In this document: positions 1 to 21,398 of the stretch, in pieces
Layout: every line of letters begins with the position of its first letter
Position numbering within the stretch: the stretch's first letter is position 1
Origin: an uncultured Acidobacteriota bacterium
Lineage (GTDB): Bacteria; Acidobacteriota; Thermoanaerobaculia; Gp7-AA8
Direction of reading: 5' to 3'
Assembly: GCA_963741955.1 (NCBI GenBank)
Contig: CAVUKB010000005.1
Location: forward strand, 832,001 to 896,000
Length of the DNA: 64,000 nt
Position numbers and translations under genes: made by a program
The notes under the pieces: model-generated
Seen by the model: the letters and a program-made list of their open reading frames with translations, nothing else
What the model was told of the DNA's origin: nothing
Database searches by the model: none

Positions 1-172
1 CCGCTTGCTGTCGCAGACGGTTCCGATCGAGGCGCGCGACATCCGCTGGATCCGTTTCGTGGAGGAAGGCTTCCCAGGTGTCGACCTTTCCGGTGCAGAG
101 ACGAATGACGGCCTCGACACGGTTCGCCTTCGCAACGATCCGAGCCTCCTGCTGCCTCCCAGTTTCAAGCAT
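1..172 (-). CDS. Partial cassette ORF (N-terminus MLETGRQQEARIV..., truncated by the window edge)
   Basis: ATG at 172-170 just after attC 193-252; open to the edge. Confidence 0.5.
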   Translation of the reverse strand, partial: MLETGRQQEARIVAKANRVEAVIRLCTGKVDTWEAFLHETDPADVARLDRNRLRQQA

Positions 173-192
173 CCAATGTGTGTCTCCAGTCC

Positions 193-252
193 GGCTAACG
201 CTCAGCATCAGCGGCGGCGCGCAGTGCCGTCCGCTGCATGTGTTTGTTGGGC
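193..252 (-). other. attC site (short type, 60 bp)
   Basis: ggctaac...catcagcggcggcgc gcagtgccgtccgctgcatg...gttgggc. Confidence 0.9.
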
Positions 253-262
253 AGCGTCTCCG

Positions 263-982
263 TCATGCTCCGGCGACAGACCCGGTACCTACCTTCTCTC
301 GCCACCTTGAGGTGTCCACGCCTTTCACGAGCAGCCAGAGCATCAACAAGAGTTCCGCCAGAGCGCCGAAGGGCAGAACGTAGGACGACAGTGTGGTGGC
401 AAGTGGCGGCCATACAAAGGTCAGCCAGCCCACACCGGCACACATCATGAAGACGCCAATGATTCGAGGAAGGAACGATGCTCTGAAGATGAGATAGCCG
501 ACCAAGAGGTCATATGCCGCAAAAAGCACAAGGGAGATGCTGAATACCTGGGCATACAATTTGAGGCCGAGCAGCGCCGTCATCTGCAACTGCTCCACTT
601 TGAACGCAACCAACAATTGACTGTCTCCAAGAATGACAAATGGAGCTAGTTGTAGGAGACCGGCAATGATCTGAATGGCACATCCTACGAGACTGAAGAA
701 CGCCGCGAGCAACGACAAGGTCCGGTTCACCGGTTCAAACAATCTGTAGAAGAGAGCTGTGACGGCTATGTAGATCAAGGTCGCGATGAGGCTAACTGCG
801 ACACCTGACCGGTACAAAGCCTCATGCGCCAGGATGTTGTTCGCCGTAGCTGCTGCGTCGCTGAGAACCACAAGCCCCTTCGCGAGGAATCCGCCAAGGA
901 AGGCCATCAGGAAATAGAACAGATACACGACACCGATCGCCCTCGCATTGGGGCATGGCGAACCTTGTTCGATCTGTTCCAT
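263..982 (-). CDS. Cassette: multi-TM membrane protein, DUF4386-like
   Basis: About 6-7 hydrophobic helices; 'DAAATANNILAHE' and 'SFLPRIIG' recall DUF4386. Start set at ATG 982 because the longer ORF runs into the attC. Confidence 0.75.
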   Translation of the reverse strand: MEQIEQGSPCPNARAIGVVYLFYFLMAFLGGFLAKGLVVLSDAAATANNILAHEALYRSGVAVSLIATLIYIAVTALFYRLFEPVNRTLSLLAAFFSLVGCAIQIIAGLLQLAPFVILGDSQLLVAFKVEQLQMTALLGLKLYAQVFSISLVLFAAYDLLVGYLIFRASFLPRIIGVFMMCAGVGWLTFVWPPLATTLSSYVLPFGALAELLLMLWLLVKGVDTSRWREKVGTGSVAGA

Positions 983-1021
983 ACATGAGCCTCCCTGTTT
1001 CACAATGCAGGCTTCGACGCT

Positions 1022-1122
1022 GCCCAACGGTTTGCCGCTGAGCCGCGGCCACCGCACACGGAAGAGTAGCACCTACGAGAACGGTGCAGCGGTGGCCGTC
1101 GGCCCCAGCGGCGGAGTTGGGC
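1022..1122 (-). other. attC site
   Basis: gcccaac...ccgctgagccgcggccaccgc...gcggtggccgtcggccccagcgg...gttgggc. Confidence 0.9.
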
Positions 1123-1130
1123 GGCGCTTT

Positions 1131-2165
1131 TCAGCGGTATCCGCCAGCAGATATGGCGCCGCCCGACAGAACCACAGCCACAGTCTCCGTGAGGTCAATC
1201 CCGCCACGGGAGTTCCTGATGATCACGGCAGGTGTCCAGATGAGACCGGGAATGCTCCACCAGCCGACGAGAGCGGACAGTAGCGAATACTTTAGCCCGG
1301 CGAGCAGCGGCTTCTGGCCCGGTTGGAGCAGAAAGATCTTCGACGGCATCATGAGACCGAGGTAGACGGCGGAGACGGTGTACTGAAACTGAACAAGGCG
1401 TACCCCATTCTTGATCGCTGTGAGCAGGGGCGAAGCCTCGGCTTGACGCTGCACCTGGTCCGGATTATCGCCCATGTTCACCATCAGAAACCGCTTGGCG
1501 TACTCGCGGTTCCACGCGAGAAACTCAAGCCGCGATTTGTCGGCACGCCACTTATCAACAACGAGATACTTTGTGAACTCCGTTGCGTGCTCGCGGCAGA
1601 CCGGAACAAGCCACGAACCACGTTCGTTGAGGCCAGCGCTCATGCGAAAAGGAACGATGGTATCTGCGGGGCGCACACAGACAGGACAGGACGCCGGGAA
1701 AGCCACGAGCGCGGAATAGACACCGACACGTAGCCAGCTGTTTTCCGTCGGGTCCAGCATCTCCGCCTTGACAGGCTGGGGCACGACGATTGGTGTTGGC
1801 TTCCAGACAGACGGCTTAACGACCGCTTCTCGTGCTGCCGCTGCCCGCGTCGCCATCTCTGCCAACGCCCGCGCGCCATTCTTGGCCAGAAAAGTGTTGT
1901 ACTTGAAAAACTGCTCGACCTGCTTCCCGTCCGCGGCCGTGTAAGTGACATGGAGAACGTTGCCGTAGACGCGAAGGTCTGCAAGGTACTGATAGTAGAT
2001 TTGGGTCGACCCAATCTCGATGCGGTCTTCAAAGGCAGACACTTGCTGCAGCCGGCGTATCCCACCATAGGAACCGTCGGGAGCCGTTACGAGCATGCCA
2101 GCCGAGAAGAATGGTCGTTGCGCTTCCATCGGGTTCGCGTTGAGATTGCGGTTCCCTCGGATCAT
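1131..2165 (-). CDS. Cassette: hypothetical protein with CxxC motif and C-terminal TM segment
   Basis: 344-aa ORF filling the cassette; CPVC...CREH motifs; hydrophobic C-terminal region. Confidence 0.8.
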   Translation of the reverse strand: MIRGNRNLNANPMEAQRPFFSAGMLVTAPDGSYGGIRRLQQVSAFEDRIEIGSTQIYYQYLADLRVYGNVLHVTYTAADGKQVEQFFKYNTFLAKNGARALAEMATRAAAAREAVVKPSVWKPTPIVVPQPVKAEMLDPTENSWLRVGVYSALVAFPASCPVCVRPADTIVPFRMSAGLNERGSWLVPVCREHATEFTKYLVVDKWRADKSRLEFLAWNREYAKRFLMVNMGDNPDQVQRQAEASPLLTAIKNGVRLVQFQYTVSAVYLGLMMPSKIFLLQPGQKPLLAGLKYSLLSALVGWWSIPGLIWTPAVIIRNSRGGIDLTETVAVVLSGGAISAGGYR

Positions 2166-2184
2166 ACCTCGGCGAGCTTGAGCT

Positions 2185-2288
2185 GCCCAACGGCCTGCGG
2201 CTCAGCGGCTTCGGACCGCCCGCGCTGAACGTGCAAACCAGAGTATACAAGGCGGCGGGCCGAAGTCCGCTGGAGCCGTTTGTTAGGT
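2185..2288 (-). other. attC site
   Basis: gcccaac...gttaggt; closely related to attC 6805-6909. Confidence 0.9.
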
Positions 2289-2293
2289 GCGGC

Positions 2294-2641
2294 TCAGGCG
2301 CTGAGCAGGCCAGCCTTGCTCGCGCGGTTGATGTAGACCAGCGTCGCAATTCCGATGATGGTTCCGAGCGGGATGTTCGGGAGCGACAGAATGGCGAGTA
2401 CGATCCCCAGCCACTTCGCCCATTTGCGCTGCGCCTCCACGCCCCGCGGAGTGATGAACGCGAGAACCGCGGTAATGAGAGACATGACGGTTGCAGTCAT
2501 CGCGAACGCCGCAGGCCGATCGGAGTACGCGACGAAGAACAGCGGTATCGCAAGAAGGTTCAAAGCCGCGATGATGTAGAACATCCGGCCGGCCTTCTCG
2601 AGACCCTTCTCGCCCGGGTCTGGGTTTAGTTGTTCAAACAT
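2294..2641 (-). CDS. Cassette: small membrane protein
   Basis: 115 aa with 3-4 TM helices; fills the cassette. Confidence 0.8.
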   Translation of the reverse strand: MFEQLNPDPGEKGLEKAGRMFYIIAALNLLAIPLFFVAYSDRPAAFAMTATVMSLITAVLAFITPRGVEAQRKWAKWLGIVLAILSLPNIPLGTIIGIATLVYINRASKAGLLSA

Positions 2642-2647
2642 GTCAGC

Positions 2648-2707
2648 AGCTAACGGTCCGCATCAGCGGCGGCGCGCGGAGCCGTCCGCTGCATGCTGTT
2701 GTTATGC
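2648..2707 (-). other. attC site (short type, 60 bp)
   Basis: agctaac...gttatgc; same family as 193-252. Confidence 0.9.
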
Positions 2708-2710
2708 GGT

Positions 2711-3107
2711 TCATCGCTCAGTGATCGCACTGCTGGCCTCCGCTCTCCTGGCTTCTCGTTCGATGCGATCCTGCTCGAAACTCGACCACGCCTGCAGGTG
2801 GTGCTGGCAAGCGAGGTACAGCTCAATCAGCTTGTCTGCTGGTGCAGCGTCGAGGTACAACGTTCTCAAGCCGCTTGACCAAGGCGTCGCTCAGCCGTGC
2901 CACCTTCGCCGCACTGTCATGTTCGAGACCGTCGCCAAGGGTGGCCCATAAGGAGGCGTACGCCTCAGCCCGACGCCGCTCTCGCGCGTCCTCCCGGCGC
3001 ATGCGTTTCAACTCGAGCCTGTGTTGCACCCAGAGGGACACCAGGGAGCTGACGAGAGCGATCACGGCCCCAAGGATGACGAGCTGAGCTTCGGGCGAGA
3101 GGTTCAC
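2711..3107 (-). pseudogene. Cassette ORF with N-terminal TM and apparent frameshift at about 2860-2890
   Basis: ORF 3107-2823 continues in another frame (LYLDAAPADKLIELYLACQHHLQAW...) to a stop at 2711, next to the attC. Real lesion or sequencing error. Confidence 0.55.
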
Positions 3108-3610
3108 GGCATCTCCCGGTCCGCGGCGTCTGCCTCGGCCGGCGCGGGCAGGATTGCCGCGAGGTCGCCCTCGACGTCGAGCCCGTACCCAGCGGCTAAT
3201 CGCGCTATGTGAACGCCAAAGACGCCTCGCAACTCACCGAGCGCGCCGTTGAACTCCCAGCTCGCCCAATGCCCGCGGTGAGCGCCGAATAGGACGATGT
3301 CCGAACGAGCGCCAACGGTGTTCAAGAACTTGCGACAGCCTGCTCGGAGTGCCCGAAGCGTGTCGGCGAGGTCGGCGCCTGTCCCAAGAGATTGTAGTTC
3401 GGTCGTGAGGAACCGCCGGATCTCCAGGACGGACTGGACGCAATGCTCCGGCACTTCCATCTCGGAGGGGACATAGAGCACCCGTCGGTCTTCGAGGAAC
3501 GTGACAACGCGTCGTGCGACCCGTACTTCGGGCTCAGGAGGATTCCACGAGACCCCGAACACCGGCGAGCTAAGACCGGTCACTCGCGCCAAGATCTCTT
3601 TGAATCGCAC
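3104..3610 (-). CDS. Cassette: DUF6650-like hypothetical protein
   Basis: 'GVSWNPP...FLEDRRVLY...HCVQSVLEIRRFLT' recalled as DUF6650; RBS GGAGGAGG upstream. Confidence 0.7.
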   Translation of the reverse strand: MRFKEILARVTGLSSPVFGVSWNPPEPEVRVARRVVTFLEDRRVLYVPSEMEVPEHCVQSVLEIRRFLTTELQSLGTGADLADTLRALRAGCRKFLNTVGARSDIVLFGAHRGHWASWEFNGALGELRGVFGVHIARLAAGYGLDVEGDLAAILPAPAEADAADREMP

Positions 3611-3628
3611 GGCTACCTCCTCCTATCC

Positions 3629-3733
3629 GCATAACGTTCTGAGCTCACCGGCACGAACCGGCGACGTGAAAAAGTATAACGCTCGCGATGCAGCAGCGCG
3701 CCGGTTCGTGCCCGGTGGAGCGCCGAGTTGGGC
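3629..3733 (-). other. attC site
   Basis: gcataac...gttgggc; loop shared with 13656-13760. Confidence 0.88.
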
Positions 3734-3751
3734 GGCGGCACCCGCTGTTCA

Positions 3752-4777
3752 TTACGCCCAGAGCTGTTTCGACAGCTTCCTCACGACCTTCTTGTTCTCG
3801 GACAGTTGTTCTGCGTTCACTTTGACGCGTTGTCCGGCGACGCTGAGCGTACCTGAGCTCATCGTAACGAACGGATTTCCGCGGGCAAATGCAACCACGC
3901 CAGAGGTCTGAAAGTCTCTCACTTCAAACATGCCATCCGCCACATTGGAGAACGTGAAGCTCGCCGGGCTGTCTTTGAGAATTGCTGAAAGATCCTGCGT
4001 GATCCCCGACAGCACTGCCGAATAGCTTTTCGCAGTGTTGATGTACTGCGTGAGACGGTTCTTCGCGACCATGTGAACCTGCGGAAGCTTCAATCCGGCG
4101 TTTTGCATACGCGTATGAAAGTTGTGCTGAGCGTACACTTCGGACGGCAACTTCAGTCCGTAGACAAGACTCATCGCATTCTGAATTCCGCGCCGCGAAG
4201 AATCGTCGGCGGTGACCGGCAGAACAAGGCGCTGGCACGCGGCCAAAGCGATCTGCGTGTACATCGAGAAGCTGGGATTCATGTCGACAAAGCAGTAGTC
4301 GAACTCGTCGTTACACGCTTCTAGAAAATCGAGCAGCCAGCTTGCGACTTTCGACCAACTATCGGTGCCGGGAATCTGCGTGTTGGCCAGCGTCGAAACA
4401 GCATTTGCCTGAAGCTCGAGCAGCGGGTCGCCGGCGAGGAGAGTGATGTTGCTCGGACTGGCAGAGTTGAAATCGTGGGGCCGGGACAGGTACCCATGAG
4501 GAGAGATGGCTGAATTGTCGAATGGCTTCGGGAGGCGGGACTGAAAGTACCCGCCTACTGAGGCTCGGCCGGGCTTGCCGTGCAGCGCGAGAAGGTTTTT
4601 TCCACCGCCATTTTCTTGCCCCCCCAGGAAGAGCTCGCTGAGATTCGCCTGCGGACACAGGTCAAGAACCAGAATCCTGTCGTCCGCGTGCTCGGTGGCG
4701 AACGTGCAAATCGTTTGAAAGGCGAGACTTGTTTTCCCCGTTCCGCCTTTGTTGTTCCAATACCCAAGAACGTTCAT
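3752..4777 (-). CDS. Cassette: ParA/MinD-superfamily ATPase
   Basis: Deviant Walker A NNKGGTGKTS, 'LVLDLCPQANLS', Walker B 'CFVDMNP'. Confidence 0.88.
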   Translation of the reverse strand: MNVLGYWNNKGGTGKTSLAFQTICTFATEHADDRILVLDLCPQANLSELFLGGQENGGGKNLLALHGKPGRASVGGYFQSRLPKPFDNSAISPHGYLSRPHDFNSASPSNITLLAGDPLLELQANAVSTLANTQIPGTDSWSKVASWLLDFLEACNDEFDYCFVDMNPSFSMYTQIALAACQRLVLPVTADDSSRRGIQNAMSLVYGLKLPSEVYAQHNFHTRMQNAGLKLPQVHMVAKNRLTQYINTAKSYSAVLSGITQDLSAILKDSPASFTFSNVADGMFEVRDFQTSGVVAFARGNPFVTMSSGTLSVAGQRVKVNAEQLSENKKVVRKLSKQLWA

Positions 4778-4859
4778 ATACTACCTCCGCATGTGATAAC
4801 GCAACATGCGCACGTAGTATTTCAACATCTCGACGTCGTGGGCTCTGGCCTTCCGAGCC

Positions 4860-4952
4860 GTCCAACATTCGCTGCTCAGCGCCTGCGGCCGAGCGCTGAA
4901 CGAAAGCACACCCCAAACGCACCGAGGACGCAGGCCGCTGGAGGCGTTAGCG
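4860..4952 (-). other. attC site, degenerate at one end
   Basis: gtccaac...ctcagcgcctgcggccg...gccgctggaggcgttagcg; the right box looks shortened relative to relative 18058-18155. Confidence 0.7.
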
Positions 4953-4953
4953 G

Positions 4954-5718
4954 CTAGGCCGACTCCTGCCAGGCTTGCCGCCAAGCGTGAAAGTTGAATG
5001 CCACGTCGTCCTGCCTTAGGGAACGTACGGTGTCGACGATCATCGTTTCAAGATCGCTAATGACAGCCCCGGAGGCGATTGTCCCGACGATCGTTCCGCC
5101 CGTCCCGTCGCCATCCGGCTCGAGATGCCTCCTGTGCCATTCGAAGCGTGAGGTGATCACGTTAGTGAAGTACTCATCCGCCCCCTGTGAACCGAAGTGC
5201 TCAGGTGGGTAAAACGACGCCAACGCGACTAGAAATGAATGAAGTGTGCGAATGAGAGCATAGCTTGCATTCATCGTGTCGGCAGTTACTCCACTGTCCC
5301 AACCTTTTTGCGCTTCGCCGTACGCGGCGGCTCGCTGTGCTGGAAGAGAATCTATGTAGGCCGTTTCAGAAGACCCTCTTCCTTGTGCGACCTCGTGTTT
5401 CTCTCCGCCGCGCGACTCCTTTTCGATTTGCAACGGAGCTTTGCGCCGTCGATCCACCGCGGCGTACCAATCCTCGCGATAGAGCGTGATCTGGTGCGCA
5501 TCGAGTTTCCGATCGAACCCACCACGGATTTGAGTGTCGCGATGGCAATCGAAACAAAGAACAGCCAGGTTTTCCTCGGCGTGATTAGTCGGATTTTCAT
5601 CGACGTGATGCAGTTGGACCGGTCGTCCACGTTCACGACACACGCAGCAGATTCGATCCGATCGAAAGAGGACTCGAGCAGCGATATCGGACGGGATGTT
5701 CGTGCGATCCTTCGCCAT
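4954..5718 (-). CDS. Cassette: HNH-endonuclease-domain protein
   Basis: CCVC...QLHHVDENPTNHAEENLAVLCFDCH (HNH with Zn CxxC pairs) plus an unknown C-terminal domain. Confidence 0.85.
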   Translation of the reverse strand: MAKDRTNIPSDIAARVLFRSDRICCVCRERGRPVQLHHVDENPTNHAEENLAVLCFDCHRDTQIRGGFDRKLDAHQITLYREDWYAAVDRRRKAPLQIEKESRGGEKHEVAQGRGSSETAYIDSLPAQRAAAYGEAQKGWDSGVTADTMNASYALIRTLHSFLVALASFYPPEHFGSQGADEYFTNVITSRFEWHRRHLEPDGDGTGGTIVGTIASGAVISDLETMIVDTVRSLRQDDVAFNFHAWRQAWQESA

Positions 5719-5727
5719 GTCGTTGCC

Positions 5728-5831
5728 GCCCAACGCCAGCGCTGAGCCGCTTCAACGCGCACGCGCCGCATAAACACGATATCAGAACCTGGTGTTGCGC
5801 GTTGAAGGCGGCTCGAGCGCGATAGTTAGCC
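5728..5831 (-). other. attC site
   Basis: gcccaac...gcgctgagccgcttcaacgcgc...gcgcgttgaaggcggctcgagcgc...gttagcc. Confidence 0.9.
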
Positions 5832-6173
5832 GGCGGCGAGCAACGCCTCTACAACCCGTCGGCTCTCTGGGGAGACCGCGAGCAGGCCCGTACGGATGTC
5901 TTGGCGAGTCAGCTCGAGGAGGCGCCGCTCCTCGGCCGTGAGCGACGAATACCGTATTCCGATGATACGCAGGTCGGCCTCCACGGTGCGAGATGCAACC
6001 GGTGCCGCGCTCGGTGCCACCTTCGCTACATCTCGAGCGACCGCGATATCTCTGGCCAAGGTTGCGAAGTTCCGTTCACGAACACTGGATCTTTCGAGAA
6101 CGATGCCCGTGCCGAGCGAGCACGCGACTCCGATGAGCAGACCTACGAGAATACTTCCTCTGGAAATTTGCAT
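5826..6173 (-). CDS. Cassette: small protein with N-terminal TM/signal
   Basis: ATG 6173 (MQISRGSILVGLLIG) with AAGGA upstream; stop lies inside the attC box. Confidence 0.65.
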   Translation of the reverse strand: MQISRGSILVGLLIGVACSLGTGIVLERSSVRERNFATLARDIAVARDVAKVAPSAAPVASRTVEADLRIIGIRYSSLTAEERRLLELTRQDIRTGLLAVSPESRRVVEALLAAG

Positions 6174-6268
6174 TTGCGATCCTTTGCGGATTCGATGGCT
6201 TCTCTCCTGCGACGAAGGGCGGAGAAGAAGGTTTCGGCAAGGAGGCCAGAAGCGGTCGATCACCCGCC

Positions 6269-6366
6269 GGCTAACGTTGCGCGGTTCAGCGGCGCCGCCG
6301 ACGCGCAGAACGAAAGGATACCGCAAACGCATCGAGGCGGCGTCCGCTGGAACCGCTAAGTTAGCT
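6269..6366 (-). other. attC site
   Basis: ggctaac...gcggttcagcgg...ccgctggaaccgc...gttagct. Confidence 0.9.
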
Positions 6367-6789
6367 GCCGCTCTGGTATTTCGCGATTCTCCATTTTGCT
6401 TGCTGGAGCGAGTCACCGGGCCAAAGGTCCACGAGGCTGCCTTCCGCGAAATACTTGTCGGCGAAATCTCTCGCGAACTGCTCGGGCTCGTAAACCACGT
6501 CTGCCTTCTCTCCGATTTCGCGGTTGCGATACCACAGGTCAAGAATCGCTACGTCGATTGTGTCTGAAAGGTGGAGACTTTCGCGTACCGCGCCCCGCCA
6601 ACCGGTCGCTTGGGTTTTGAGCGCGATGTGGAGATTGATCTTCTCGAGTTTCGATTCACGGTCTGATGGAAGGACACCGATCACATCGAGGATGAACGCT
6701 TCGAAGAAGAGGTCAATCGGCGAGTGCTTGTACCGATTTGCGAGATCTTCCACTTGTTGGCTAGGCGGTTTCTTCGGGAACGGCCACAT
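6361..6789 (-). CDS. Cassette: hypothetical protein (MWPFPKK...)
   Basis: 142-aa ORF filling the cassette; stop inside the attC box. Confidence 0.75.
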   Translation of the reverse strand: MWPFPKKPPSQQVEDLANRYKHSPIDLFFEAFILDVIGVLPSDRESKLEKINLHIALKTQATGWRGAVRESLHLSDTIDVAILDLWYRNREIGEKADVVYEPEQFARDFADKYFAEGSLVDLWPGDSLQQAKWRIAKYQSGS

Positions 6790-6804
6790 TGTCGTGTCAC
6801 AGGC

Positions 6805-6909
6805 AGCTAACGGTGCGCGCTTCAGCGGCTTCGGCCCGCACGCGCAACACCTGCAAAACCAAGTATACAAGGCCGCGGGCCGAAGTCCGCTGCGAGCGCA
6901 GGGTTAGGC
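6805..6909 (-). other. attC site
   Basis: agctaac...gttaggc. Confidence 0.9.
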
Positions 6910-7344
6910 GGCGGGCACCTCGTTGCTTTCGATCGGCATTCGGAGTAACTGGAAACCTGCCCATATGATCGTTTCGGTGACGACGAATGCGACCAGCAGA
7001 ATAGAAAGGAATAGCCACGACATTTCAGGAACGAGGAGCGACTGCCCGACGGTAGCGACTGTCCAAACAGCGAGCGCAGCCATCAAAGCCACCAGCGTCA
7101 AGTAACGCAGCCGGCGCAGCACTCGACCTGCGCCGATTGCGATTGTTGCGAGAACCAAGGCGGTAAAAAGAGCGATGAAATATGCGACGTCAGCCGCAAT
7201 CATAACGATTTCAAGAATCGATTGGACAGTTGACCCCTGTTGGCGCGTCCATTGAAAAGCGAGCGAGATAACCAACTGCACTACGAGCAGAATGAACCAG
7301 AACATCAGAAAGAGTACCCCTCGACGTCGGTGAATTCGGTTCAT
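6904..7344 (-). CDS. Cassette: 4-TM membrane protein
   Basis: 146 aa with four hydrophobic segments. Confidence 0.75.
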   Translation of the reverse strand: MNRIHRRRGVLFLMFWFILLVVQLVISLAFQWTRQQGSTVQSILEIVMIAADVAYFIALFTALVLATIAIGAGRVLRRLRYLTLVALMAALAVWTVATVGQSLLVPEMSWLFLSILLVAFVVTETIIWAGFQLLRMPIESNEVPAA

Positions 7345-7357
7345 GCTCTTTTCGGCC

Positions 7358-7421
7358 GCCTAACGCTCCGGTTCAGCGGCGGGCCGCGCAGCGGACCGTC
7401 CGCTGCAACCGGTTGTTGGGC
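7358..7421 (-). other. attC site (short type, 64 bp)
   Basis: gcctaac..ccggttcagcggcgggccgc gcagcggaccgtccgctgcaaccgg..gttgggc. Confidence 0.9.
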
Positions 7422-7467
7422 GGCCGTCTCGCGGGTCGGTAACAGCATCGTTCGCGCAGGCCATGCG

Positions 7468-13760: not shown

Positions 13761-13766
13761 GCGCGA

Positions 13767-14297: not shown

Positions 14298-14305
14298 ATT
14301 GAAGC

Positions 14306-14383
14306 GGCTAACGTTGCTGCTAACCGGCAGACCGCAGACGGCGAAGCCGGCTGTGGTCTGTCCGGTTGAGCAGCGGGTTAGCC
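14306..14383 (-). other. attC site (78 bp)
   Basis: ggctaac..gctgctaaccggcagaccgcag...ctgtggtctgtccggttgagcagc..gttagcc. Confidence 0.9.
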
Positions 14384-14390
14384 GTCAGTT

Positions 14391-15047
14391 TCACGGAACG
14401 ACGGGCGAGGTCTTCTGGCCGCGAGCAGGCCAGATGAAGAGCCCCACCGCTACTACACCGGCCACGAGCAGCCCGAGGTCGGGTTTGACATCCAGGAGAA
14501 AGGCGGCCTGACTACCCACCAAGGACCAAAGGATGGGCACAGTGAGGACTGCGCGCATCTTCGCTCCCGACGCGAGCGCGAGCAAACCGATGGTAAAGAT
14601 GGTGGTTGGACACGGCAGACCAAACGTCGGGAGTTCAGGATACGCGTGCCCAGCAAGCGTGGACCAAACGGGATACGCGACGAGTGCGAAGGCGAGTAGG
14701 AATATCCCGAGAACGGTACGAACGCTCCTGGCAAAGGCAAACTCGATTCGGCGGTGAATCACGCCGTGCCAAGCGAACAGAAGACCTCCGATGATTGACA
14801 GTGCGCCAAACCCGTAAGCCACAGGGTTGATGCGCGCGAAGAACGCCAGGTGGTAGGCTGCACCAAGCCAAACCCAGAGAAAGGTCAAAACGGCTGACAC
14901 TCCCACACTGGACCACGGACGCCGAAGCGCGATGAAGATCACGGCCAGCACTGCAAGCAGAATCAGGAAGACCTGCGCCGGCCAGACGGTGCTGTTGTAC
15001 AGCCTGAAGACGCCAAAGAACTGCTCAGTGGTGAAGGGTAGCTGCAT
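14391..15047 (-). CDS. Cassette: DUF6064-like membrane protein
   Basis: 'LPFTTEQFFGVFRLYN..VWPAQ' and 'FGLPCPTTIFT' recalled as DUF6064. Confidence 0.8.
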   Translation of the reverse strand: MQLPFTTEQFFGVFRLYNSTVWPAQVFLILLAVLAVIFIALRRPWSSVGVSAVLTFLWVWLGAAYHLAFFARINPVAYGFGALSIIGGLLFAWHGVIHRRIEFAFARSVRTVLGIFLLAFALVAYPVWSTLAGHAYPELPTFGLPCPTTIFTIGLLALASGAKMRAVLTVPILWSLVGSQAAFLLDVKPDLGLLVAGVVAVGLFIWPARGQKTSPVVP

Positions 15048-15060
15048 GATGGCTCTTGAC

Positions 15061-15164
15061 GGCTAACGTTGCGCGGTTCACCGGCGCGAACCGCGCGCCG
15101 AGACCGCGGCTCTTGCAGGACAGTAAAGCAGCGGTTCGCGTCCGGTGCAACCGTTTTGTTAGGC
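15061..15164 (-). other. attC site
   Basis: ggctaac...gttaggc. Confidence 0.9.
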
Positions 15165-15316
15165 GGCTGGGCCGAACACGCGGTTGATTTGGCGAGCAGC
15201 GTACATGCCGATAACCGTTCCAGCGAGACCAGCTGCCGAAGGAAGAATGGCCGGTGGCATCGCTGCGGCGAAACGACGCATCCGATCGAGTATCGACGAA
15301 TAACACCCGCTAGGCG

Positions 15317-15769
15317 TTATTTCTTCACTGAGGGTACCAACTCTGGGTTGTACTTCTTCCAAACTGCAACGAAGCGATCCGCCGCTCGGCTGCTTGGCCG
15401 CCGGCCGAATCGAAAGGTGTTTTCGTCTCCCCACTGCCAGAGAATTCGGAGCGTCTGTTGGTCCTGAACGACCTTCGCAGCCTTGAGTTCCGTGTACGGA
15501 TTCCCGCGGCTGGTTATTACGGAAGACACAACGATGATTAACTCGGCATCTTCGGGTGTGTCGACGATCGTGAGCGGTGAGGGCTCCGGGAGATCATCGA
15601 GCATCTCCTTCACGATGTTATTGTGAAGTTCCAAGTCGCCGTCAGTGTCGATGAAGATTTTCGTTACACCGTGAAGTTCTTCTTCCTTACCATATTGGAG
15701 AGTTCCGGCGGCTGCCTGAATTGCAAAGAGCAGAGCTACTACCGAAATCAGAGAAACGCGACGACTCAT
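15317..15769 (-). CDS. Cassette: secreted hypothetical protein
   Basis: ATG 15769 with GAGGAG RBS; signal peptide MSRRVSLISVVALLFAIQAAA. Confidence 0.78.
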   Translation of the reverse strand: MSRRVSLISVVALLFAIQAAAGTLQYGKEEELHGVTKIFIDTDGDLELHNNIVKEMLDDLPEPSPLTIVDTPEDAELIIVVSSVITSRGNPYTELKAAKVVQDQQTLRILWQWGDENTFRFGRRPSSRAADRFVAVWKKYNPELVPSVKK

Positions 15770-15797
15770 CTCCTCGCTCCTGCGCCGTTCAACTGGC

Positions 15798-15897
15798 GCC
15801 TTACACTTCTTGCTCAGCGGCTGCTGCCGAGCGCTGAACCAAACCATACCGCAAACGCACCGTGACCTCAGGCCGCTGGAGACAGCGGGTTATAGGC
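15798..15897 (-). other. Degenerate attC site
   Basis: gccttac (instead of gcctaac)...gttataggc (2-bp insertion); the body matches family 18058-18155. Confidence 0.7.
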
Positions 15898-15901
15898 GGC
15901 A

Positions 15902-16372
15902 TCACATCTTTTGAAGGGCGAGACGGCAGAGCCTCTCAACTTCTGCGGCATTTCTGTTTTCCCGGTGCCTACTGAAGGCTCCCTCAAGTTTTCGGAGACT
16001 GTCCGCGACATGAGCACTCCTGAGCGTCGTTTCGCTGCCAAGTAAGTCGCGGATGCACATCGGCGCCTCGTTTTCTCTGAGATACTCATCGTCGATTTCA
16101 GCCATGGCAGCCCACGTACAAAGAACGATGTCGCGCTTCCATGTAGTCTGCTCCTCGACTTTTCGCCAGAAGACATGATGCTTCTGAAGCGAACGTGACG
16201 GGCGATGCTTGGGACAATAAAGTTTGAGAGGCTCGGCTGTGAGGCAAAGCCAGCCCTCCTCGTGAGCTGCAGCAAGGGCCCTTAGAAGGGTGTCTCCAAT
16301 TCCTCCCGCAAAGTCGAGCGCGAGAGGACAACCTTCACTGGAGCATGTCATTCGAAAGCTGGCGATGGTCAC
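15902..16372 (-). CDS. Cassette: hypothetical protein with putative Zn ligands
   Basis: CxxxxC...CxxH; GTG start with GAGGAG RBS. Confidence 0.7.
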   Translation of the reverse strand: MTIASFRMTCSSEGCPLALDFAGGIGDTLLRALAAAHEEGWLCLTAEPLKLYCPKHRPSRSLQKHHVFWRKVEEQTTWKRDIVLCTWAAMAEIDDEYLRENEAPMCIRDLLGSETTLRSAHVADSLRKLEGAFSRHRENRNAAEVERLCRLALQKM

Positions 16373-16391
16373 TTGTGCGACTCCTCATGCC

Positions 16392-16493
16392 GCCTAACGG
16401 CTGTTGCTCAGCCGCCGGAACGCGCCACCAAGAACGAACGAGCTGCGACGACCGTGGGGCGCGTTCCGGTCGGCTGCAGCAACTTAGTTAGGT
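16392..16493 (-). other. attC site
   Basis: gcctaac...gttgctcagccgccggaacgcgcc...ggcgcgttccggtcggctgcagcaac...gttaggt. Confidence 0.9.
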
Positions 16494-17062
16494 GGCCCGG
16501 CGAGGAGCCGGTAGGAACTGCCCACCTTTTCCCGGCGGATTCGCCCAACCTTCTCAAGCCACGAGCAGAGGTTAGCGAACTCGCGGCCATCCGCGACCCC
16601 AAGCAACGACTTTGCGTCTTTCTGAGCGACCGATCGTTGCGCCTGTATCAGCGCCACAAGTCGGTCGCCCACCAACGCGAGTTCTGCGCGGGCCGAGACG
16701 TCGGCTGCCCAACCTTCCAGCTCTCGCACGGAGCTCAACGCTTGCTGCATCTCACGGAGGCCGGCATGGTCACCGAGTGCCATCAGGACAGGCGCGCCGT
16801 CTCGCACGGCGACGGACTGAGCGATGTCCCAGCTCCCGTACTTTCGTCGCTCGCTGGTTACCACCTGTGCGAAGAGCGGCGTGGTCGCCTTCGCGAGCGC
16901 GGCGACCCGAGCGTATTGCTTCGCCGACTTTGCCTGCAGAATCTGGTCATGGAGGGCGAAGTAGCGATCGACCGAGTTGGAGGGGAGAGGAGAATCTGCA
17001 ACCCGGTCCGGTTCTGCGGTCGCCGCGCTACCTTGAAAAAGCCGTTTGAAGAACGATGTCAT
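16484..17062 (-). CDS. Cassette: hypothetical protein (MTSFFKRLF..., possible C-terminal wHTH)
   Basis: 192 aa; the ORF runs into the attC. Confidence 0.78.
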   Translation of the reverse strand: MTSFFKRLFQGSAATAEPDRVADSPLPSNSVDRYFALHDQILQAKSAKQYARVAALAKATTPLFAQVVTSERRKYGSWDIAQSVAVRDGAPVLMALGDHAGLREMQQALSSVRELEGWAADVSARAELALVGDRLVALIQAQRSVAQKDAKSLLGVADGREFANLCSWLEKVGRIRREKVGSSYRLLAGPPN

Positions 17063-17069
17063 TCAGGGT

Positions 17070-17170
17070 ACCTAACGGCCGCGGTTCACCTGCACGGGCA
17101 CGCCCCGCGACCGCAGCTTCATCAGTAATGGTAGCGCGTGCCCGTGTCAGGTGGAACCGCTTTGTTAGGT
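17070..17170 (-). other. attC site
   Basis: acctaac...gttaggt; near-identical to 17488-17588. Confidence 0.92.
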
Positions 17171-17482
17171 GCGCGATGCGTCTGGCGATGAGAGTGATAC
17201 GGTGACTTCGTCCACCTCGGGGCGAGCGCGAAACCAGGCATCGATTTTTGAGCGTTCACGGTCACCGATGGTCCGAGGGTTAGACTTGAACGTGATCGTG
17301 CCTCTCCACTCGCCCTCGGTTCCTACGGCACTCATCTCCAGATCCGCAGGCCCGAGAACCTCGCAAAAAAACGCGCGCATGGCGAGGCGCTGCTGATCGT
17401 GCGAGTAGTTCGCTTGAGCGCGCCATTGGAAGGTCACGCGTTCAGCACGGCGTTTCAGTTTTTCTCTCACGCGGTTCCGCAC
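17165..17482 (-). CDS. Cassette: small hypothetical protein
   Basis: 105 aa filling the cassette; stop inside the attC box. Confidence 0.65.
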   Translation of the reverse strand: MRNRVREKLKRRAERVTFQWRAQANYSHDQQRLAMRAFFCEVLGPADLEMSAVGTEGEWRGTITFKSNPRTIGDRERSKIDAWFRARPEVDEVTVSLSSPDASRT

Positions 17483-17487
17483 GAAGC

Positions 17488-17588
17488 ACCTAACGGCCGC
17501 GGTTCACCTGCACGGGCACGCCCGCACACCGCAGCTTCATGGGTAATGGTAGCGCGTGCCCGTGGCAGGTGGAACCGCTTTGTTAGCT
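17488..17588 (-). other. attC site
   Basis: acctaac...gttagct. Confidence 0.92.
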
Positions 17589-17593
17589 GCCGT

Positions 17594-18055
17594 ATGCTGA
17601 TGTTGATGAGAGTGGGTGATGTGATTGCAGTTCCTGCAGGCGATGCCGAGCGGGAGTGCCAGGTGCTGTACGTTTCTACATACTTTCGAGACGTTGTGCT
17701 TCTGGGAGTACTCCCGGCCGTGCAGGGCGAGCGTTATGAATTGCTGATCTACACAGCCGCGCTCGCGTCCGTGCGAGCGGGCGACTGGAAAATCGTTGGT
17801 ACGAAAGAACCGTTTGAGCCGGAACTCCTTTCGACGCGAATTGTGGCAACAGACGTCTGGAGAGGCGATGAGAAGCTGCGGCCGGCGAACAGTTCGGATC
17901 GTACATTGCTGCCGACGATGAGAGTGGCGGGACAGGGAGCTGTCGAAAAGATGCTTCAATCTCTGACGGCGAACGACCAGTCAAAGATGCTGATGCTCGC
18001 GCTCGGGGAAACTGCTCGGCTATTGGAAGGCGTTGAGCGAGGGGCGGTCGCTTAG
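17594..18055 (+). CDS. Cassette ORF in inverted orientation; Imm26-like immunity protein
   Basis: The plus-strand ORF spans the cassette exactly; 'MRVGDVIAVP...CQVLYVS.YF..VVLLGV' resembles the Imm26 N-terminus. Confidence 0.65.
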   Translation: MLMLMRVGDVIAVPAGDAERECQVLYVSTYFRDVVLLGVLPAVQGERYELLIYTAALASVRAGDWKIVGTKEPFEPELLSTRIVATDVWRGDEKLRPANSSDRTLLPTMRVAGQGAVEKMLQSLTANDQSKMLMLALGETARLLEGVERGAVA

Positions 18056-18057
18056 GC

Positions 18058-18155
18058 AGCTAACGATTTGCTGCTCAGCGGCTGCCGCCGATCGCTGAAC
18101 AAAAGTGTAACGCAAAAGGACCGAGGCGGCAGTCCGCTGTAGCCGCGGGTTAGGC
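18058..18155 (-). other. attC site
   Basis: agctaac...gttaggc. Confidence 0.9.
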
Positions 18156-18503
18156 GGCGGGCTCTCGAAGCTTCAAAACGCCACGGTCGACCATCGTGCT
18201 CCAGAATGCCGGATCCTGCAGCGCGTATTCGAGAACGAAGCTGGCCGCACTTGTCCGCGTCGCCGGCATGATGACAAAGCCGGCGATCACTGCTGCGACG
18301 CACCAATACCAAGGCAGCCAAATGAAAGAAAGCAGACCGGCGATCGGCATGAGGCACCCAAGATTCTTCCAGAACAGGTGTGCGGCACGGACATTCGTTG
18401 GTAGTGCGCCCTTCTGATCGCAAACGTGCATTGCTGCCGAGCGGTCGACCGCGACCTCGATCTTTCCCTGTTTATAGGCACTGATGAACTCATCGTGCGT
18501 CAT
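18150..18503 (-). CDS. Cassette: small 2-TM membrane protein
   Basis: 117 aa; AAGGTGG RBS; stop inside the attC box. Confidence 0.78.
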   Translation of the reverse strand: MTHDEFISAYKQGKIEVAVDRSAAMHVCDQKGALPTNVRAAHLFWKNLGCLMPIAGLLSFIWLPWYWCVAAVIAGFVIMPATRTSAASFVLEYALQDPAFWSTMVDRGVLKLREPAA

Positions 18504-18592
18504 TGAGCCACCTTGAAAGCAGAGATTGGCCGCGCAGCCTGAGCTTGGGGCCTGACGCGATCCGGTTCATGTCCATTCGGTGGGCGCCACGA

Positions 18593-18904
18593 TTACCGCA
18601 TCCGTGAGTAGTGGTGCGCCGATATTCGACGGGCGGTCTCCTCGAGCGCTGAGGTGTGTTTGTGATTCGGCAAATGACGACGTGCGTCTTCAGCGATTCG
18701 ACCCAGCGACTCCGCGTGCGCTCCTTTCAAAGTCTTCCCACCGTTGAGAAGGACTCGCAGGTGCTGAACCATGTCTTCGTCACGATCGTATGAAACTGGC
18801 ATTGCACGACGAACCTGTTCCGCTTTCTCAAGGAACTCGCGACGTTCTAAATCCTTCGTCTTGATGCGTCTCTCGCAGAGCTCTTCGAATGAAAGGCGCG
18901 GCAT
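18593..18904 (-). CDS. Cassette: small helical hypothetical protein
   Basis: 103 aa; strong RBS GAGGAGG; first ORF of a two-gene cassette. Confidence 0.7.
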   Translation of the reverse strand: MPRLSFEELCERRIKTKDLERREFLEKAEQVRRAMPVSYDRDEDMVQHLRVLLNGGKTLKGAHAESLGRIAEDARRHLPNHKHTSALEETARRISAHHYSRMR

Positions 18905-18940
18905 GTACTACCTCCTCGCGAAACAAGGGCGGCCCTCGCC

Positions 18941-19042
18941 GCCTAACGCCCGTGGCTGAGCCGCCAGCGCACGGCTCGGAAATGTTGCAAGATCGAGTAG
19001 TGGCTGAACGTGCGCTGGTCGGCTCGAGCCACTTTGTTAGGT
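18941..19042 (-). other. attC site (first in the array)
   Basis: gcctaac...gtggctgagccgccagcgcacg...cgtgcgctggtcggctcgagccac...gttaggt. Confidence 0.9.
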
Positions 19043-19068
19043 GGGGCGCGGCATGCTGAGGCCGACGA

Positions 19069-19521
19069 TTAATTATTCTCGCAGGTGGCAACGAAGCTCA
19101 TCGCGTTCTGTTTACCGAAGTCGACATTTGTGAAGGTTTTATTATAGAGAACCGTCCCGTATCTGTAGTTGAGAACCACGGTGATCAGATTCTGTTCGTC
19201 GAGGTAGACGGCGAATGTCTCGTTCTCGTTGCTGCGCACGATCCTGTATGGCTGGTTGTCAACCATGAGCACATCGTCTCGTTCGAGAAGATGAATACGC
19301 AGAGGGCTTGAGTTCTTCTCCTTGAGGATCTCGACCACATGCTGCCCACTTTCGCCACGAGTCATGCCTGCCCACACATAATCGGCTCCTGAGCAAACAA
19401 TAGGAAACCCTTTCGCAACAGGCGAATTCGCACGTGTCGCCCTAAAATCGGCCGCGGTCGCTGGCGAGAAAGACAACAGGGCGAGCAAGAGCGTGCACGC
19501 GATGACAAAATTGATTCTCAT
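19069..19521 (-). CDS. Cassette 1: secreted hypothetical protein
   Basis: Signal peptide; GGAGG RBS; two further Cys in the mature part. Confidence 0.8.
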   Translation of the reverse strand: MRINFVIACTLLLALLSFSPATAADFRATRANSPVAKGFPIVCSGADYVWAGMTRGESGQHVVEILKEKNSSPLRIHLLERDDVLMVDNQPYRIVRSNENETFAVYLDEQNLITVVLNYRYGTVLYNKTFTNVDFGKQNAMSFVATCENN

Positions 19522-19545
19522 CGATCCTCCGCTGGAAGGTACCGG

Positions 19546-19758
19546 CTACTCCTTCCCCTGTTCTAAGTCGCTCAGGGTCTCACCGACTACCCGATGATCG
19601 GCCAACTGGTGGCGACAGGCACAGGACTCGTTCTCCGCTCCGTTCTCAAACCCATAGCCGCCTCCCTCGAGAAGAACCGCCGAAACCGAGCGAGAACATT
19701 CACAACGATCATGATCGCAGACGATGTCCACGGTCACTCGGAGAGATTCCCGAATCAT
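19546..19758 (-). CDS. Cassette 1: small Cys-rich protein
   Basis: ATG overlaps the upstream stop (TAATG); CDHDRCEC...CACRH. Confidence 0.5.
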   Translation of the reverse strand: MIRESLRVTVDIVCDHDRCECSRSVSAVLLEGGGYGFENGAENESCACRHQLADHRVVGETLSDLEQGKE

Positions 19759-20138
19759 TACATGCCTTTCCACGCCCATCTGTAGAGTGTGCCCTTACTG
19801 TTCGCCCAGAACATCCTGTACGCCGTGTACCCATTAACGGCAGCCGGCGTATAGGTCGTTGTGCTGGTAGCCCACCCCGTATTGCCGGAAACGGTTGCCG
19901 TCGTGTTCGTGGTGGCTCGTCCGGGAGTTGTCCAAGTGCGGTCTGCAGCCCAGACTAGGACTTTGCCTCCCGAACCGTCGTCGAACACCTGTTGAGGGGG
20001 GCCCCAGCTCGCGATGAGGTCGTTAACATTCGCTCCCATCCAGGACTCCATCACCTTGTTTACGCTGCTGGCACACGATGTCGTGAATGGCAGAAGAGCG
20101 AGTAGCGGGAGAACCAACCATGCTTTGCGTTGCCGCAT
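19758..20138 (-). CDS. Cassette 1: putative lipoprotein
   Basis: ATG 20138 with AGGAGG RBS; hydrophobic stretch then FTTSC; 'SWMG..VNDLIASWGPP'. Confidence 0.78.
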   Translation of the reverse strand: MRQRKAWLVLPLLALLPFTTSCASSVNKVMESWMGANVNDLIASWGPPQQVFDDGSGGKVLVWAADRTWTTPGRATTNTTATVSGNTGWATSTTTYTPAAVNGYTAYRMFWANSKGTLYRWAWKGM

Positions 20139-20193
20139 ATGCGCCTCCTGGACAGCTAGACGAAACAGCATATACCACGGATGACCCAGAAGC

Positions 20194-20212
20194 CCCTAAC
20201 TAGTGATTAAGC
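20194..20212 (-). other. Candidate attI site
   Basis: Minus strand reads GCTTAAT-CACTA-GTTAGGG (L box, 5-bp spacer, R box). There is no attC-type palindrome; the R box nearly complements the R'' of the first attC. Confidence 0.75.
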
Positions 20213-20213
20213 G

Positions 20214-20242
20214 ATTGTAGTAGACCTATCGAAAATTGAGAA
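20214..20242 (-). promoter_or_regulatory. Candidate cassette promoter Pc
   Basis: TTCTCA-N17-TACAAT on the minus strand, spanning the intI stop codon and pointing into attI. Confidence 0.45.
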
Positions 20243-21398
20243 ACCGGACGAGTTTTGACCAATAAAACCCGAACGAGGACATCGGAGATGACGACGTAAC
20301 TCCTTCATCATTCAAGGAGTTCTCCGCTTCGGTCGTTTCCGTGGCCGGTTGTTTCCGGACATTTCGTGACGCTTCATCCGCAATTTCGCCCGCGACGGAC
20401 CGGGCGGGTTCCTCGGCCAGAACCAGCCCGTCCGCGGGACTCCGCACCCCCTTCGTCCCGGGGCGGTTCAGTACGTGCGTGTAGATCATCGTCGTCGTCA
20501 CGTCGGCGTGTCCGAGCAGCTCCTGCACTGTTCGAATGTCGTAACCGTCCTCGAGGAGATGCGTCGCGAACGAGTGCCGGAAGCTGTGGCAGGTGACTTT
20601 CTTCGAGATCCCCGCTCGCGCCGTCGCCTCCTTCACCGCCCGCTGGAGGTGCTTCTCCATGACATGGTGGCGGCGCCGGATGCCGCTCCGAGGATCGGTC
20701 GACACGTGTCGTGACGGAAATACCCACTGCCACGGCCACTCCCGCCCCGCGTTCGGATACTTCCGCTCCAGGGCATCCGGAAGCCACACCCCCGCAAGCC
20801 CCTCCTCACGGTCCGACTTCCACAACCCTTCGAGCCGGGCGAGGTGCGCACGCAGCGGCGCGACGAGCGTTTCCGGCAGCGTGGTCACCCGATCCTTTCT
20901 CCCCTTCCCGTCCCGGACGGTCACCTCCAGCCGCTCGAGCTCGAGATCCTTGATGCGCAGGCGCAGGCACTCGATCTGCCGCAATCCTCCCCCATAGAGC
21001 AGACCCGCCATCAGCCGCGGCGTCCCACTCATCTGCCCAATCAGCTTCGCCACCTCGATCCTGGTGAGCACCACCGGGAGCCGCTTCGGCTTCTTCGCAC
21101 GAATCACCTCCAACGGCTGAAGCTCTTCCTTCAACACCTCGCGATACAGGAACAGGATCGCCGACAACGCCTGGTTCTGGGTCGAAGAGGAGACGTGCCC
21201 GTCGACCGCGAGATGCGTGAGATAGCGGTTGATCTCCTCCGATCCCATCGAGGAGGGATGGCGTTTGTTGTGGAAGAGGATGAACCGCCGGATCCATTGA
21301 AGGTAGGTTTCTTCGGTGCGGGAGCTGTAATGCTTCGCCCGGATCGTGTCGCGTACCTGATCAAGAAGCTTCGGAGGCTTCGGTGCGGCGTCGTACAT
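20226..21398 (-). CDS. intI: Integron integrase (tyrosine recombinase) with about 65-aa C-terminal extension
   Basis: [39 protein letters not shown]; IntI-specific insertion '[26 protein letters not shown]'. Confidence 0.97.

Follow-up and report, generated by a model that had tools for sequence, protein, structure and literature searches.

The 64,000-nucleotide (nt) stretch of DNA analysed here (the window; contig CAVUKB010000005.1, positions 832,001 to 896,000) very likely carries a complete integron of the sedentary chromosomal kind and of the inverted-integrase (reverse) type, housed in a Thermoanaerobaculia-like genome of the Acidobacteriota. In this element, the integrase gene intI points toward its own cassette array, a putative attI site lies just past the intI stop codon, and at least 24 co-directional cassettes follow. 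An earlier reading of the same DNA (the original prediction) had proposed that intI is co-oriented with the cassettes and that attI is located at its 3' end, and this arrangement is borne out by the polarity of all 24 attC sites, which is independent of the open reading frames (ORFs). Papers are cited below by their PMC numbers.

The integrase and the attC sites

The integrase gene was recognized as an ORF and by its match to the integron integrase family TIGR02249.

20226..21398, minus strand: intI, integron integrase of 390 amino acids (aa), including the stop codon at 20228-20226

The match to TIGR02249 reaches 465.4 bits (cut-off 265) and spans IntI residues 11-325 and the full model (1-315). 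Furthermore, the protein carries the Pfam domains of tyrosine recombinases (PF13495 and PF00589), and the solved VchIntIA structure (2a3v) aligns with residues 12-323 with an E-value (E) of 8e-92. The extra-domain region of VchIntIA aligns with IntI without gaps (query 200-240), and W221, W223, Q224, and F227 are invariant in the IntI alignment of 22 sequences (the window and 21 relatives). Six further residues, R140, K165, H271, R274, H297, and Y306, are likewise invariant in 22/22 and are taken by us, from the spacing in IntI1 and XerD, to be the catalytic R-K-H-R-H-Y set. Judged by its sequence, the window IntI is an intact IntI-family tyrosine recombinase with the IntI-specific additional domain.

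A search for direct repeats in the window returned families of imperfect palindromes between ...YAAC and GTTR... ends. Twelve clean window sites were aligned to build an attC covariance model of 104 positions (R1). In its consensus fold, five pairs form the R-box helix, an unpaired spacer follows, and the stem of 18 pairs is interrupted in its 3' arm by two unpaired bases. In these 12 seed sites 97.5% of the cells pair and compensatory changes are seen in 15 of the 23 pairs; the observed pairing and covariation were never equalled in 500 column shuffles, and sliding the partner columns by 1-3 positions lowered the pairing to 26-41%. When R1 was applied to the whole window without filters, 64 matches had E ≤ 10. 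Of these, 24 lie on the plus strand between 193 and 19042 with E < 0.01, which equals the number of attC sites in the original prediction, and 22 of the 24 score 33-92 bits. The sites are 60-130 nt long with a mean column identity of 54%, and all are covered by the one model. As the array, which covers 20 kb here, continues past the left window edge, 24 is a minimum for attC sites and cassettes alike. The attC sites are listed below from the intI end, each on the plus (bottom) strand with its R1 score there and, in brackets, on the minus strand.

18941..19042, plus: attC 1, 90.3 bits (33.7)
18058..18155, plus: attC 2, 59.6 bits (21.1)
17488..17588, plus: attC 3, 78.4 bits (29.4)
17070..17170, plus: attC 4, 87.1 bits (34.3)
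16392..16493, plus: attC 5, 89.0 bits (37.5)
15798..15897, plus: attC 6, weak, with degenerate R boxes, 21.6 bits, E 0.0035; 80% identical to the repeat at 4867-4946
15061..15164, plus: attC 7, 67.8 bits (20.5)
14306..14383, plus: attC 8, short (78 nt), 45.1 bits (24.3)
13656..13760, plus: attC 9, 69.1 bits (22.0)
13158..13262, plus: attC 10, 84.5 bits (33.7)
11969..12098, plus: attC 11, long (130 nt), 61.4 bits (14.7)
11314..11416, plus: attC 12, 80.6 bits (36.8)
10640..10744, plus: attC 13, 91.9 bits (34.6)
9845..9946, plus: attC 14, 84.4 bits (35.3)
7358..7421, plus: attC 15, short (64 nt), 46.5 bits (23.4)
6805..6909, plus: attC 16, 89.5 bits (30.8)
6269..6366, plus: attC 17, 78.7 bits (25.7)
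5728..5831, plus: attC 18, 81.5 bits (28.9)
4860..4952, plus: attC 19, weak, 27.2 bits (10.6)
3629..3733, plus: attC 20, 38.4 bits (10.3)
2648..2707, plus: attC 21, short (60 nt), 33.1 bits (no minus-strand match among those listed)
2185..2288, plus: attC 22, 91.2 bits (24.0)
1022..1122, plus: attC 23, 78.1 bits (24.9)
193..252, plus: attC 24, short (60 nt), 36.4 bits (10.2)

At all 24 sites the minus-strand match is lower or absent, and the model alignment places two extrahelical bases in the plus-strand 3' arm of every site. Of the inner extrahelical bases 19 are T, 4 are G, and 1 is C; of the outer ones 12 are C, 11 are G, and 1 is T, and it is the outer base that the literature consulted describes as G. 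Extrahelical bases decide which attC strand recombines (PMC2727003; PMC12614218), and the T and G bases belong to the folded, recombined bottom strand (PMC2727003). From the strand of the better score and of the extrahelical bases it follows that the plus strand is the bottom strand and that the cassettes are read on the minus strand. The head of the array is therefore its high-coordinate end (at about 20200), which lies against the intI 3' end, and attI is to be expected there; a canonical attI beyond the left window edge is excluded, as it would require attC sites of the reverse polarity. R1 found no attC to the right of intI in the window, and Rfam gave no match in the cassette array. In agreement with the claim that nearly all cassette ORFs are on the minus strand, the longest ORF inside the cassette lies on that strand in 22 of the 24 cassettes.

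Two sets of candidate sites were rejected. A pattern-plus-folding scan yielded 123 attC candidates throughout the window, mostly inside ordinary genes; it was too noisy and was superseded by the covariance model. The sole other R1 matches with E < 0.01, at 57545-57633, form a symmetric perfect hairpin that scores equally on both strands, lacks AAC/GTT boxes, and is part of an unrelated repeat array. That array (57500-59900, just upstream of hemB) holds about nine head-to-tail copies of a 215-290-nt unit sharing a 28-nt core, and in the first copy there is a perfect 28-nt hairpin (57552-57579 with 57600-57627); Rfam gave no match for the array.

Layout and its inheritance in the IntI tree

The layout was compared with that of related integrons by a scan of species-representative genomes, from which the best 80 of 590 confirmed IntI loci were kept, without the window's genome and its nearest relatives. 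All 80 were searched with R1 and 17 were re-searched with filters off; weaker matches (E > 0.01 with filters off), some of them in other configurations, were not used. With intI set on the plus strand, significant R1 matches occur in just two configurations, namely on the plus strand upstream of intI (canonical) or on the minus strand downstream of it (co-oriented). By this measure 9 loci are co-oriented (L003, L022, L023, L033, L046, L048, L051, L054, and L055), 25 are canonical, and 46 stay unlabelled, many of the last having little flank on one side. Six of the nine co-oriented loci belong to Acidobacteriota by title, the rest being Coriobacteriia, Lentisphaeria, and Elusimicrobiota, and the canonical loci include the class 1 integron L066 and one Acidobacteriota locus, L047.

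A maximum-likelihood tree was computed from 93 IntIs: the 80 loci, the window, and 12 of 120 listed proteins (P0002-P0007, P0009-P0012, P0016, and P0020). With 34 labelled loci and without the classical inverted members (Treponema, Chlorobium, and Blastopirellula), it splits the two layouts at one branch with an ultrafast bootstrap of 97 and a Shimodaira-Hasegawa-like approximate likelihood ratio test (SH-aLRT) value of 92, and quick trees agree. A single layout change suffices in 94% of 200 bootstrap trees, and none of 500 label shuffles was as low. The co-oriented side, as drawn in the quick tree, has 26 rows: 10 that are labelled, 4 unlabelled loci almost without downstream flank, and 12 context-less proteins. 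The 10 labelled rows adjoin canonical soil/freshwater IntIs including IntI1 (L066/L067). On this tree the co-oriented layout is inherited and is the rule in the window's IntI lineage.

The junction between intI and the array

The following features meet at the 3' end of intI.

20194..20212, minus strand: attI-like simple site with L-like box GCTTAATC (20212-20205), spacer ACTA, and R box GTTAGGG (20200-20194)
20214..20242, minus strand: promoter-like site TTCTCA-17-TACAAT, candidate cassette promoter (Pc), straddling the intI stop codon
20229..20423, minus strand: IntI C-terminal extension (residues 326-390), outside the TIGR02249 and 2a3v alignments
20232-20264, minus strand: conserved end of this tail (residues 379-389), kept in the nearest relatives

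After the intI stop codon the minus strand reads GTCTACTACAATCGCTTAATCACTAGTTAGGGGC, which can be parsed as the L-like box, a 4-nt spacer, and the R box. The site begins 13 nt past the stop, where the original prediction had put it, and its GTT begins 25 nt past the stop. The attC at 11969-12098 ends in GTTAGGG, the same as this R box. Similar sites are found 3' of intI, at 63-686 nt past the stop, in seven relatives that have the co-oriented layout or lie in its clade (L003, L022, L033, L046, L048, L055, and L074), and that of L055 is nearly identical to the window's. A search with a pattern derived from these sites had a single match in the window and two in the 1 Mb of related loci, the latter both 3' of intI in inverted loci; since the pattern was built from these same sites, only the absence of other matches is informative. 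The site at 20194-20212 is thus a candidate attI, with its crossover presumably between G20200 and T20199.

Two related loci show further peculiarities at this position. In L055 (Elusimicrobiota, 2198-2885), 686 nt separate the intI stop from the attI-like site, which leaves space for a small gene. In L008 (Desulfuromonas, 10972-11260), TTTATACAG recurs several times in the 290 nt 3' of the intI stop, before the contig ends, and these could be protein-binding repeats of an attI region.

The promoter-like site is the sole match of its kind in 19000-22000 (0.8 expected by chance) and one of two on the cassette strand in 22 kb, and it ends 13 nt ahead of the attI-like R box. It lies in a trough of guanine-cytosine (GC) content, as 140 nt around the intI stop fall to 0.35-0.48 within a region of 60% GC. 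In all eight loci compared (the window and the seven relatives), the 100 nt 5' of the attI candidate are 13-20 points below the GC of the locus. The first cassette ORF starts 29 nt past the R box GTT, behind AGGAGG. No terminator-like site was found on the minus strand in 20226-20100, and read-through from intI is therefore also possible, since nothing of that kind separates intI and attI. With moderate confidence, we prefer a separate cassette promoter in the AT-rich junction, to which read-through may add. The promoter-like site straddling the intI stop codon would be a minor new point.

Beyond the IntI core, a tail of similar length is present in 10 of the 22 aligned IntIs, all from the window's subclade, and three further members of that subclade stop about 20 residues past the core. 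The tail consists of an unconserved linker rich in Pro, Glu, Thr, and Ala, variable in length, followed by a conserved YWTKLVRFLGF-like end. GC at third codon positions (GC3) drops from 0.83 in the core of intI to 0.60 in the linker. Over the last 15 codons GC is 0.40, with no codon-position pattern; these codons make up the AT-rich stretch that holds the -35 hexamer, at most 70 nt from the crossover. In the AlphaFold2 (AF2) model the predicted local distance difference test (pLDDT) score of the tail is about 30, and residues 377-386 form a short helix. Used by itself as a query, the tail (residues 326-390) matched only its own sequence, so its distribution is known only from full-length IntI matches. 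This clade-specific 65-residue tail, which runs into the AT-rich attI-proximal region, appears to be a minor new point and was not met in print.

Extensions of other kinds exist. L022 and L033 (Acidobacteriota IntIs) carry a different one of about 47 residues with an acidic end, and IntI tails thus vary between subclades of the inverted group. L070 was considered as a second tailed IntI on account of a match to residues 9-390 and was rejected: it has a stop codon after the core, so there is no tail, and its layout is canonical.

Taken together, these features suggest the following mechanism. IntI would be transcribed toward an attI located just beyond its stop codon, and would bind double-stranded attI together with the folded plus (bottom) strand of an attC site, whether incoming or resident. 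Strand exchange would take place at G20200|T20199, as expected from the family mechanism and the attC polarity, and new cassettes would enter at position 1 with their genes reading on the minus strand. Transcription of the cassettes would most likely start in the AT-rich intI 3' end (candidate TTCTCA-17-TACAAT, 20242-20214), and read-through from intI may top it up.

Several observations weigh against a working inverted integron with its own cassette promoter. Two of the 24 attC sites are weak (4860-4952 with 27.2 bits and 15798-15897 with 21.6 bits), the attI-like R box ends in G and not in the usual pyrimidine, and the L box is imperfect. In the comparison of layouts, five of the nine co-oriented labels come from a single attC match, the canonical labels of L010 and L044 come from matches with E of 0.016-0.031, and the window's subclade (13 rows, support 100/97) has DNA context for the window only, the 12 others being proteins without contigs. 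A consensus-like promoter within 150 nt 5' of the attI candidate was found in one of the eight loci, the window itself; the scan used the sigma-70 consensus, which may not suit this phylum. Stress or SOS control of intI is unsupported: LexA-box-like motifs had no match in 21399-21900 and no window-wide excess, when searched for as two short consensus patterns, which are perhaps wrong for this class. A search for inverted repeats 5' of intI gave only short GC-rich pairs. The two degenerate attC sites and the imperfect attI could also mean that the array is a decaying or static attC cluster beside an integrase that no longer acts on it, a fossil integron without a working attI, and a first cassette with three ORFs and no internal attC could likewise reflect lost sites. 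This is highly improbable in our view, as intI is intact and keeps all conserved positions, 22 attC sites show near-perfect pairing with compensatory changes, one polarity runs through 24/24, and the cassette ORFs are intact and co-oriented; the integrase probably still recombines its cassettes. A recent local inversion or an assembly error in a canonical integron could mimic the layout: a join near 20200 is not excludable from the window alone, and there is an isolated report of a class 1 integron whose intI is inverted (PMC4889954). Given that the layout is the rule in the IntI lineage, either event is very unlikely and indeed hardly credible, since nine independently assembled relatives share the layout on the window's side of the 97/92 branch, seven relatives have an attI-like core of the same form 3' of intI, and the IntI ORF passes smoothly into the AT-rich attI region with a tail that is conserved in 10 of the 22 aligned IntIs. 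The misassembly near 20200 that was named as a possible refutation of the original prediction is unlikely for the same reason.

The junction itself allows rival accounts that are harder to dismiss. Read-through from the intI promoter, a route already raised in the original prediction, may be the main source of cassette expression, without a dedicated Pc, so that this expression would be tied to integrase induction. Such an account agrees with the co-orientation of the genes, the 25 nt from stop codon to attI core, the lack of a terminator-like site between intI and attI, and the seven of eight related loci without a consensus-like promoter before attI. It is set against a promoter-like site exactly at the window's intI-attI junction, an AT-rich dip there in 8/8 loci, and Figure 1b of PMC6557892, which draws reverse integrons with separate PintI and PC. 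Moreover, cassette genes such as a methyltransferase would presumably be needed constitutively, which speaks against induction-only expression, and we regard read-through as the main route as rather unlikely. The conserved tail end could reflect a constraint on the DNA (attI accessory sites or a promoter) and not a functional peptide. The last 15 codons, patternless by codon position at a GC of 0.40 versus a core GC3 of 0.83, are at most 70 nt from the crossover and share bases with the -35 hexamer, and the low pLDDT of about 30 points the same way. On the other hand, the motif stays in frame after a linker of variable length in 10/10 long-form relatives, its substitutions are conservative (L/I/V, F/L, and K/R), and AF2 still draws the short helix at 377-386; a DNA constraint has close to an even chance of being the explanation. 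It is also conceivable that a Thermoanaerobaculia subclade extended the intI frame by 65 codons into its own attI/promoter region, so that the AT-rich stretch 20201-20270 would play a triple role as IntI C-terminus (YW[ST]K[LIV]VR[FL][LF]), as -35/-10 of the cassette promoter, and as attI flank. We consider this triple role improbable; if true, integrase translation and transcription, attI occupancy, and first-cassette expression would be coupled more tightly than in any described integron.

Cassettes, host and known relatives

Most cassette ORFs have no family. The Pfam cut-off was reached by 7 of 32 scanned minus-strand ORFs, none of 4 plus-strand ORFs matched anything, and, at the thresholds used, all family-matched cassette ORFs lie on the minus strand. 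Cassette 1 (1253 nt) holds the three ORFs mentioned above, and no internal attC was found in it with R1; it may be a multi-gene cassette or may consist of fused cassettes with lost sites. The remaining cassettes were described from family matches and ORF strand, and the array leaves the window within a further, cut-off cassette.

18947..20199, minus strand: Cassette 1, three ORFs without family match
19758-20171, minus strand: Cassette 1 ORF, 137 aa, signal-peptide-like N-terminus with Cys; AGGAGG 8 nt before its ATG
19546-19779, minus strand: Cassette 1 ORF, 77 aa, no family match
19069-19521, minus strand: Cassette 1 ORF, 150 aa, no family match
199..18946, minus strand: Cassettes 2-24
17165-17482, minus strand: YggL-like ORF (family match)
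14391-15047, minus strand: DUF6064 ORF (family match)
7364..9850, minus strand: two-gene cassette, methyltransferase and partner ORF
8478-9800, minus strand: type II DNA methyltransferase (PADLOC MTase_II, 155.9 bits; PF01555)
7468-8478, minus strand: methyltransferase partner, 336 aa, no family, overlapping the methyltransferase ORF by one base
4954-5733, minus strand: HNH-like ORF (weak match)
3752-4777, minus strand: ParA-like AAA_31 ATPase ORF (family match)
3104-3610, minus strand: DUF6650 ORF (family match)
263-1072, minus strand: DUF4386 ORF (family match)
1-198, minus strand: further, cut-off cassette, whose ORF (2-208, minus strand) exits the window

The cassette at 7364-9850 is probably a restriction-modification system. 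Together with the mostly family-less cassette proteins, this probable pair accords with the idea that chromosomal integrons store genes for accessory functions and defence.

The right flank opens, directly upstream of intI and after a gap of 486 nt, with two ORFs on the intI strand (21885-25843, minus strand): one has a SWIM zinc finger and the other encodes an SNF2-family helicase of 1027 aa with DUF3670. Further right are genes for hemerythrin, a peptidase, an insertion sequence (IS)-type transposase, a Ser/Thr kinase, acetyl-CoA synthetases (acs), pyruvate dehydrogenase E1, hemB, a tRNA, tilS, and hpt. Genes for transposition are absent next to intI; the IS-like ORF closest to it (31450-32769, plus strand) is 10 kb away, encodes an IS-type DDE transposase (DDE_Tnp_1, DUF772), and is surrounded by chromosomal genes. 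The GC content of the array is 57-62%, and that of the flank is 61-68%. With housekeeping genes in the flank and the same IntI recorded on a contig of 1,466,178 nt, the predicted chromosomal location stands, and the flank of the integron is, from its gene content, chromosomal. The host is probably a member of Thermoanaerobaculia (Acidobacteriota). Among 120 listed HemB relatives all 10 that are organism-named are Acidobacteriota (9 Thermoanaerobaculia and 1 Vicinamibacterales, 71-77% identity), in line with the phylum suggested at the outset, and the 2 named IntIs among the nearest twelve listed are both from Thermoanaerobaculia.

The inverted layout itself, though seldom met in textbooks, is already known, and the literature deals with it as a matter of routine (PMC13323075; PMC8352920). 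A co-oriented intI was described in Treponema denticola ATCC 35405 in 2004 (Coleman et al. as cited in PMC3607928, PMC4909258, and PMC6557892), and later cases include other Treponema, Chlorobium phaeobacteroides, Blastopirellula marina, and one Acinetobacter class 1 integron (PMC3607928, PMC4909258, PMC6557892, and PMC4889954). As the original prediction had it, the window belongs to the type of T. denticola (PMC3607928 and PMC6557892): in both, intI runs toward attI (a candidate site in the window) in the same direction as a long chromosomal cassette array, and the stretch from intI to the first attC contains an R box of the GTTAGG type. They differ in phylum (Spirochaetota versus Acidobacteriota) and in that the window IntI has a 65-residue tail, which brings the attI core to 25 nt past the stop, T. 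denticola being compared here by its description. Inverted IntIs have been placed as a sub-clade of the soil/freshwater IntI clade (Boucher et al. 2007 as cited in PMC8352920 and PMC4889954), and the 10 co-oriented rows of our tree agree with this, as all are on one side of a branch next to canonical soil/freshwater IntIs. In one study the inverted group was paraphyletic (PMC4889954), whereas one change is found here with 34 labelled loci that lack Treponema, Chlorobium, and Blastopirellula. A recent soil metagenome study counts the inverted type among two expected structures (PMC13323075).

With the class 1 integrons L066 and L067 the window shares IntI (about 55% identical), attI (a candidate site in the window), attC-bounded cassettes, and the attC architecture; class 1 differs in that intI is divergent from the cassettes with attI at its 5' end, and in being mobile with short arrays. 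In L066, R1 places attC upstream of intI on the plus strand. Sedentary chromosomal integrons of Acidobacteria are from the same phylum and likewise form chromosomal arrays, and 120 sites underlie their taxon-specific attC model, whose 106 positions compare with 104 in the window model (PMC8352920). Our literature search found no description of an inverted integron in Acidobacteriota, and Supplementary Figure S2 of PMC4889954 and Supplementary Figure 2 of PMC8352920 may already show one; no description of any integron in Thermoanaerobaculia was found by this search.

The window thus adds an example to a known type and extends current understanding without changing it. It offers a clean and long inverted-integrase integron in Acidobacteriota, a dominant but little-studied soil phylum, and its tail and junction architecture is the only part that might reward further study. 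Most integron experiments have used the divergent class 1 and Vibrio platforms, in which Pc and PintI face each other. In a co-oriented platform the interference between Pc and PintI is removed and intI transcription can run into the cassettes, which therefore makes it a natural system for the link between cassette expression and integrase induction.

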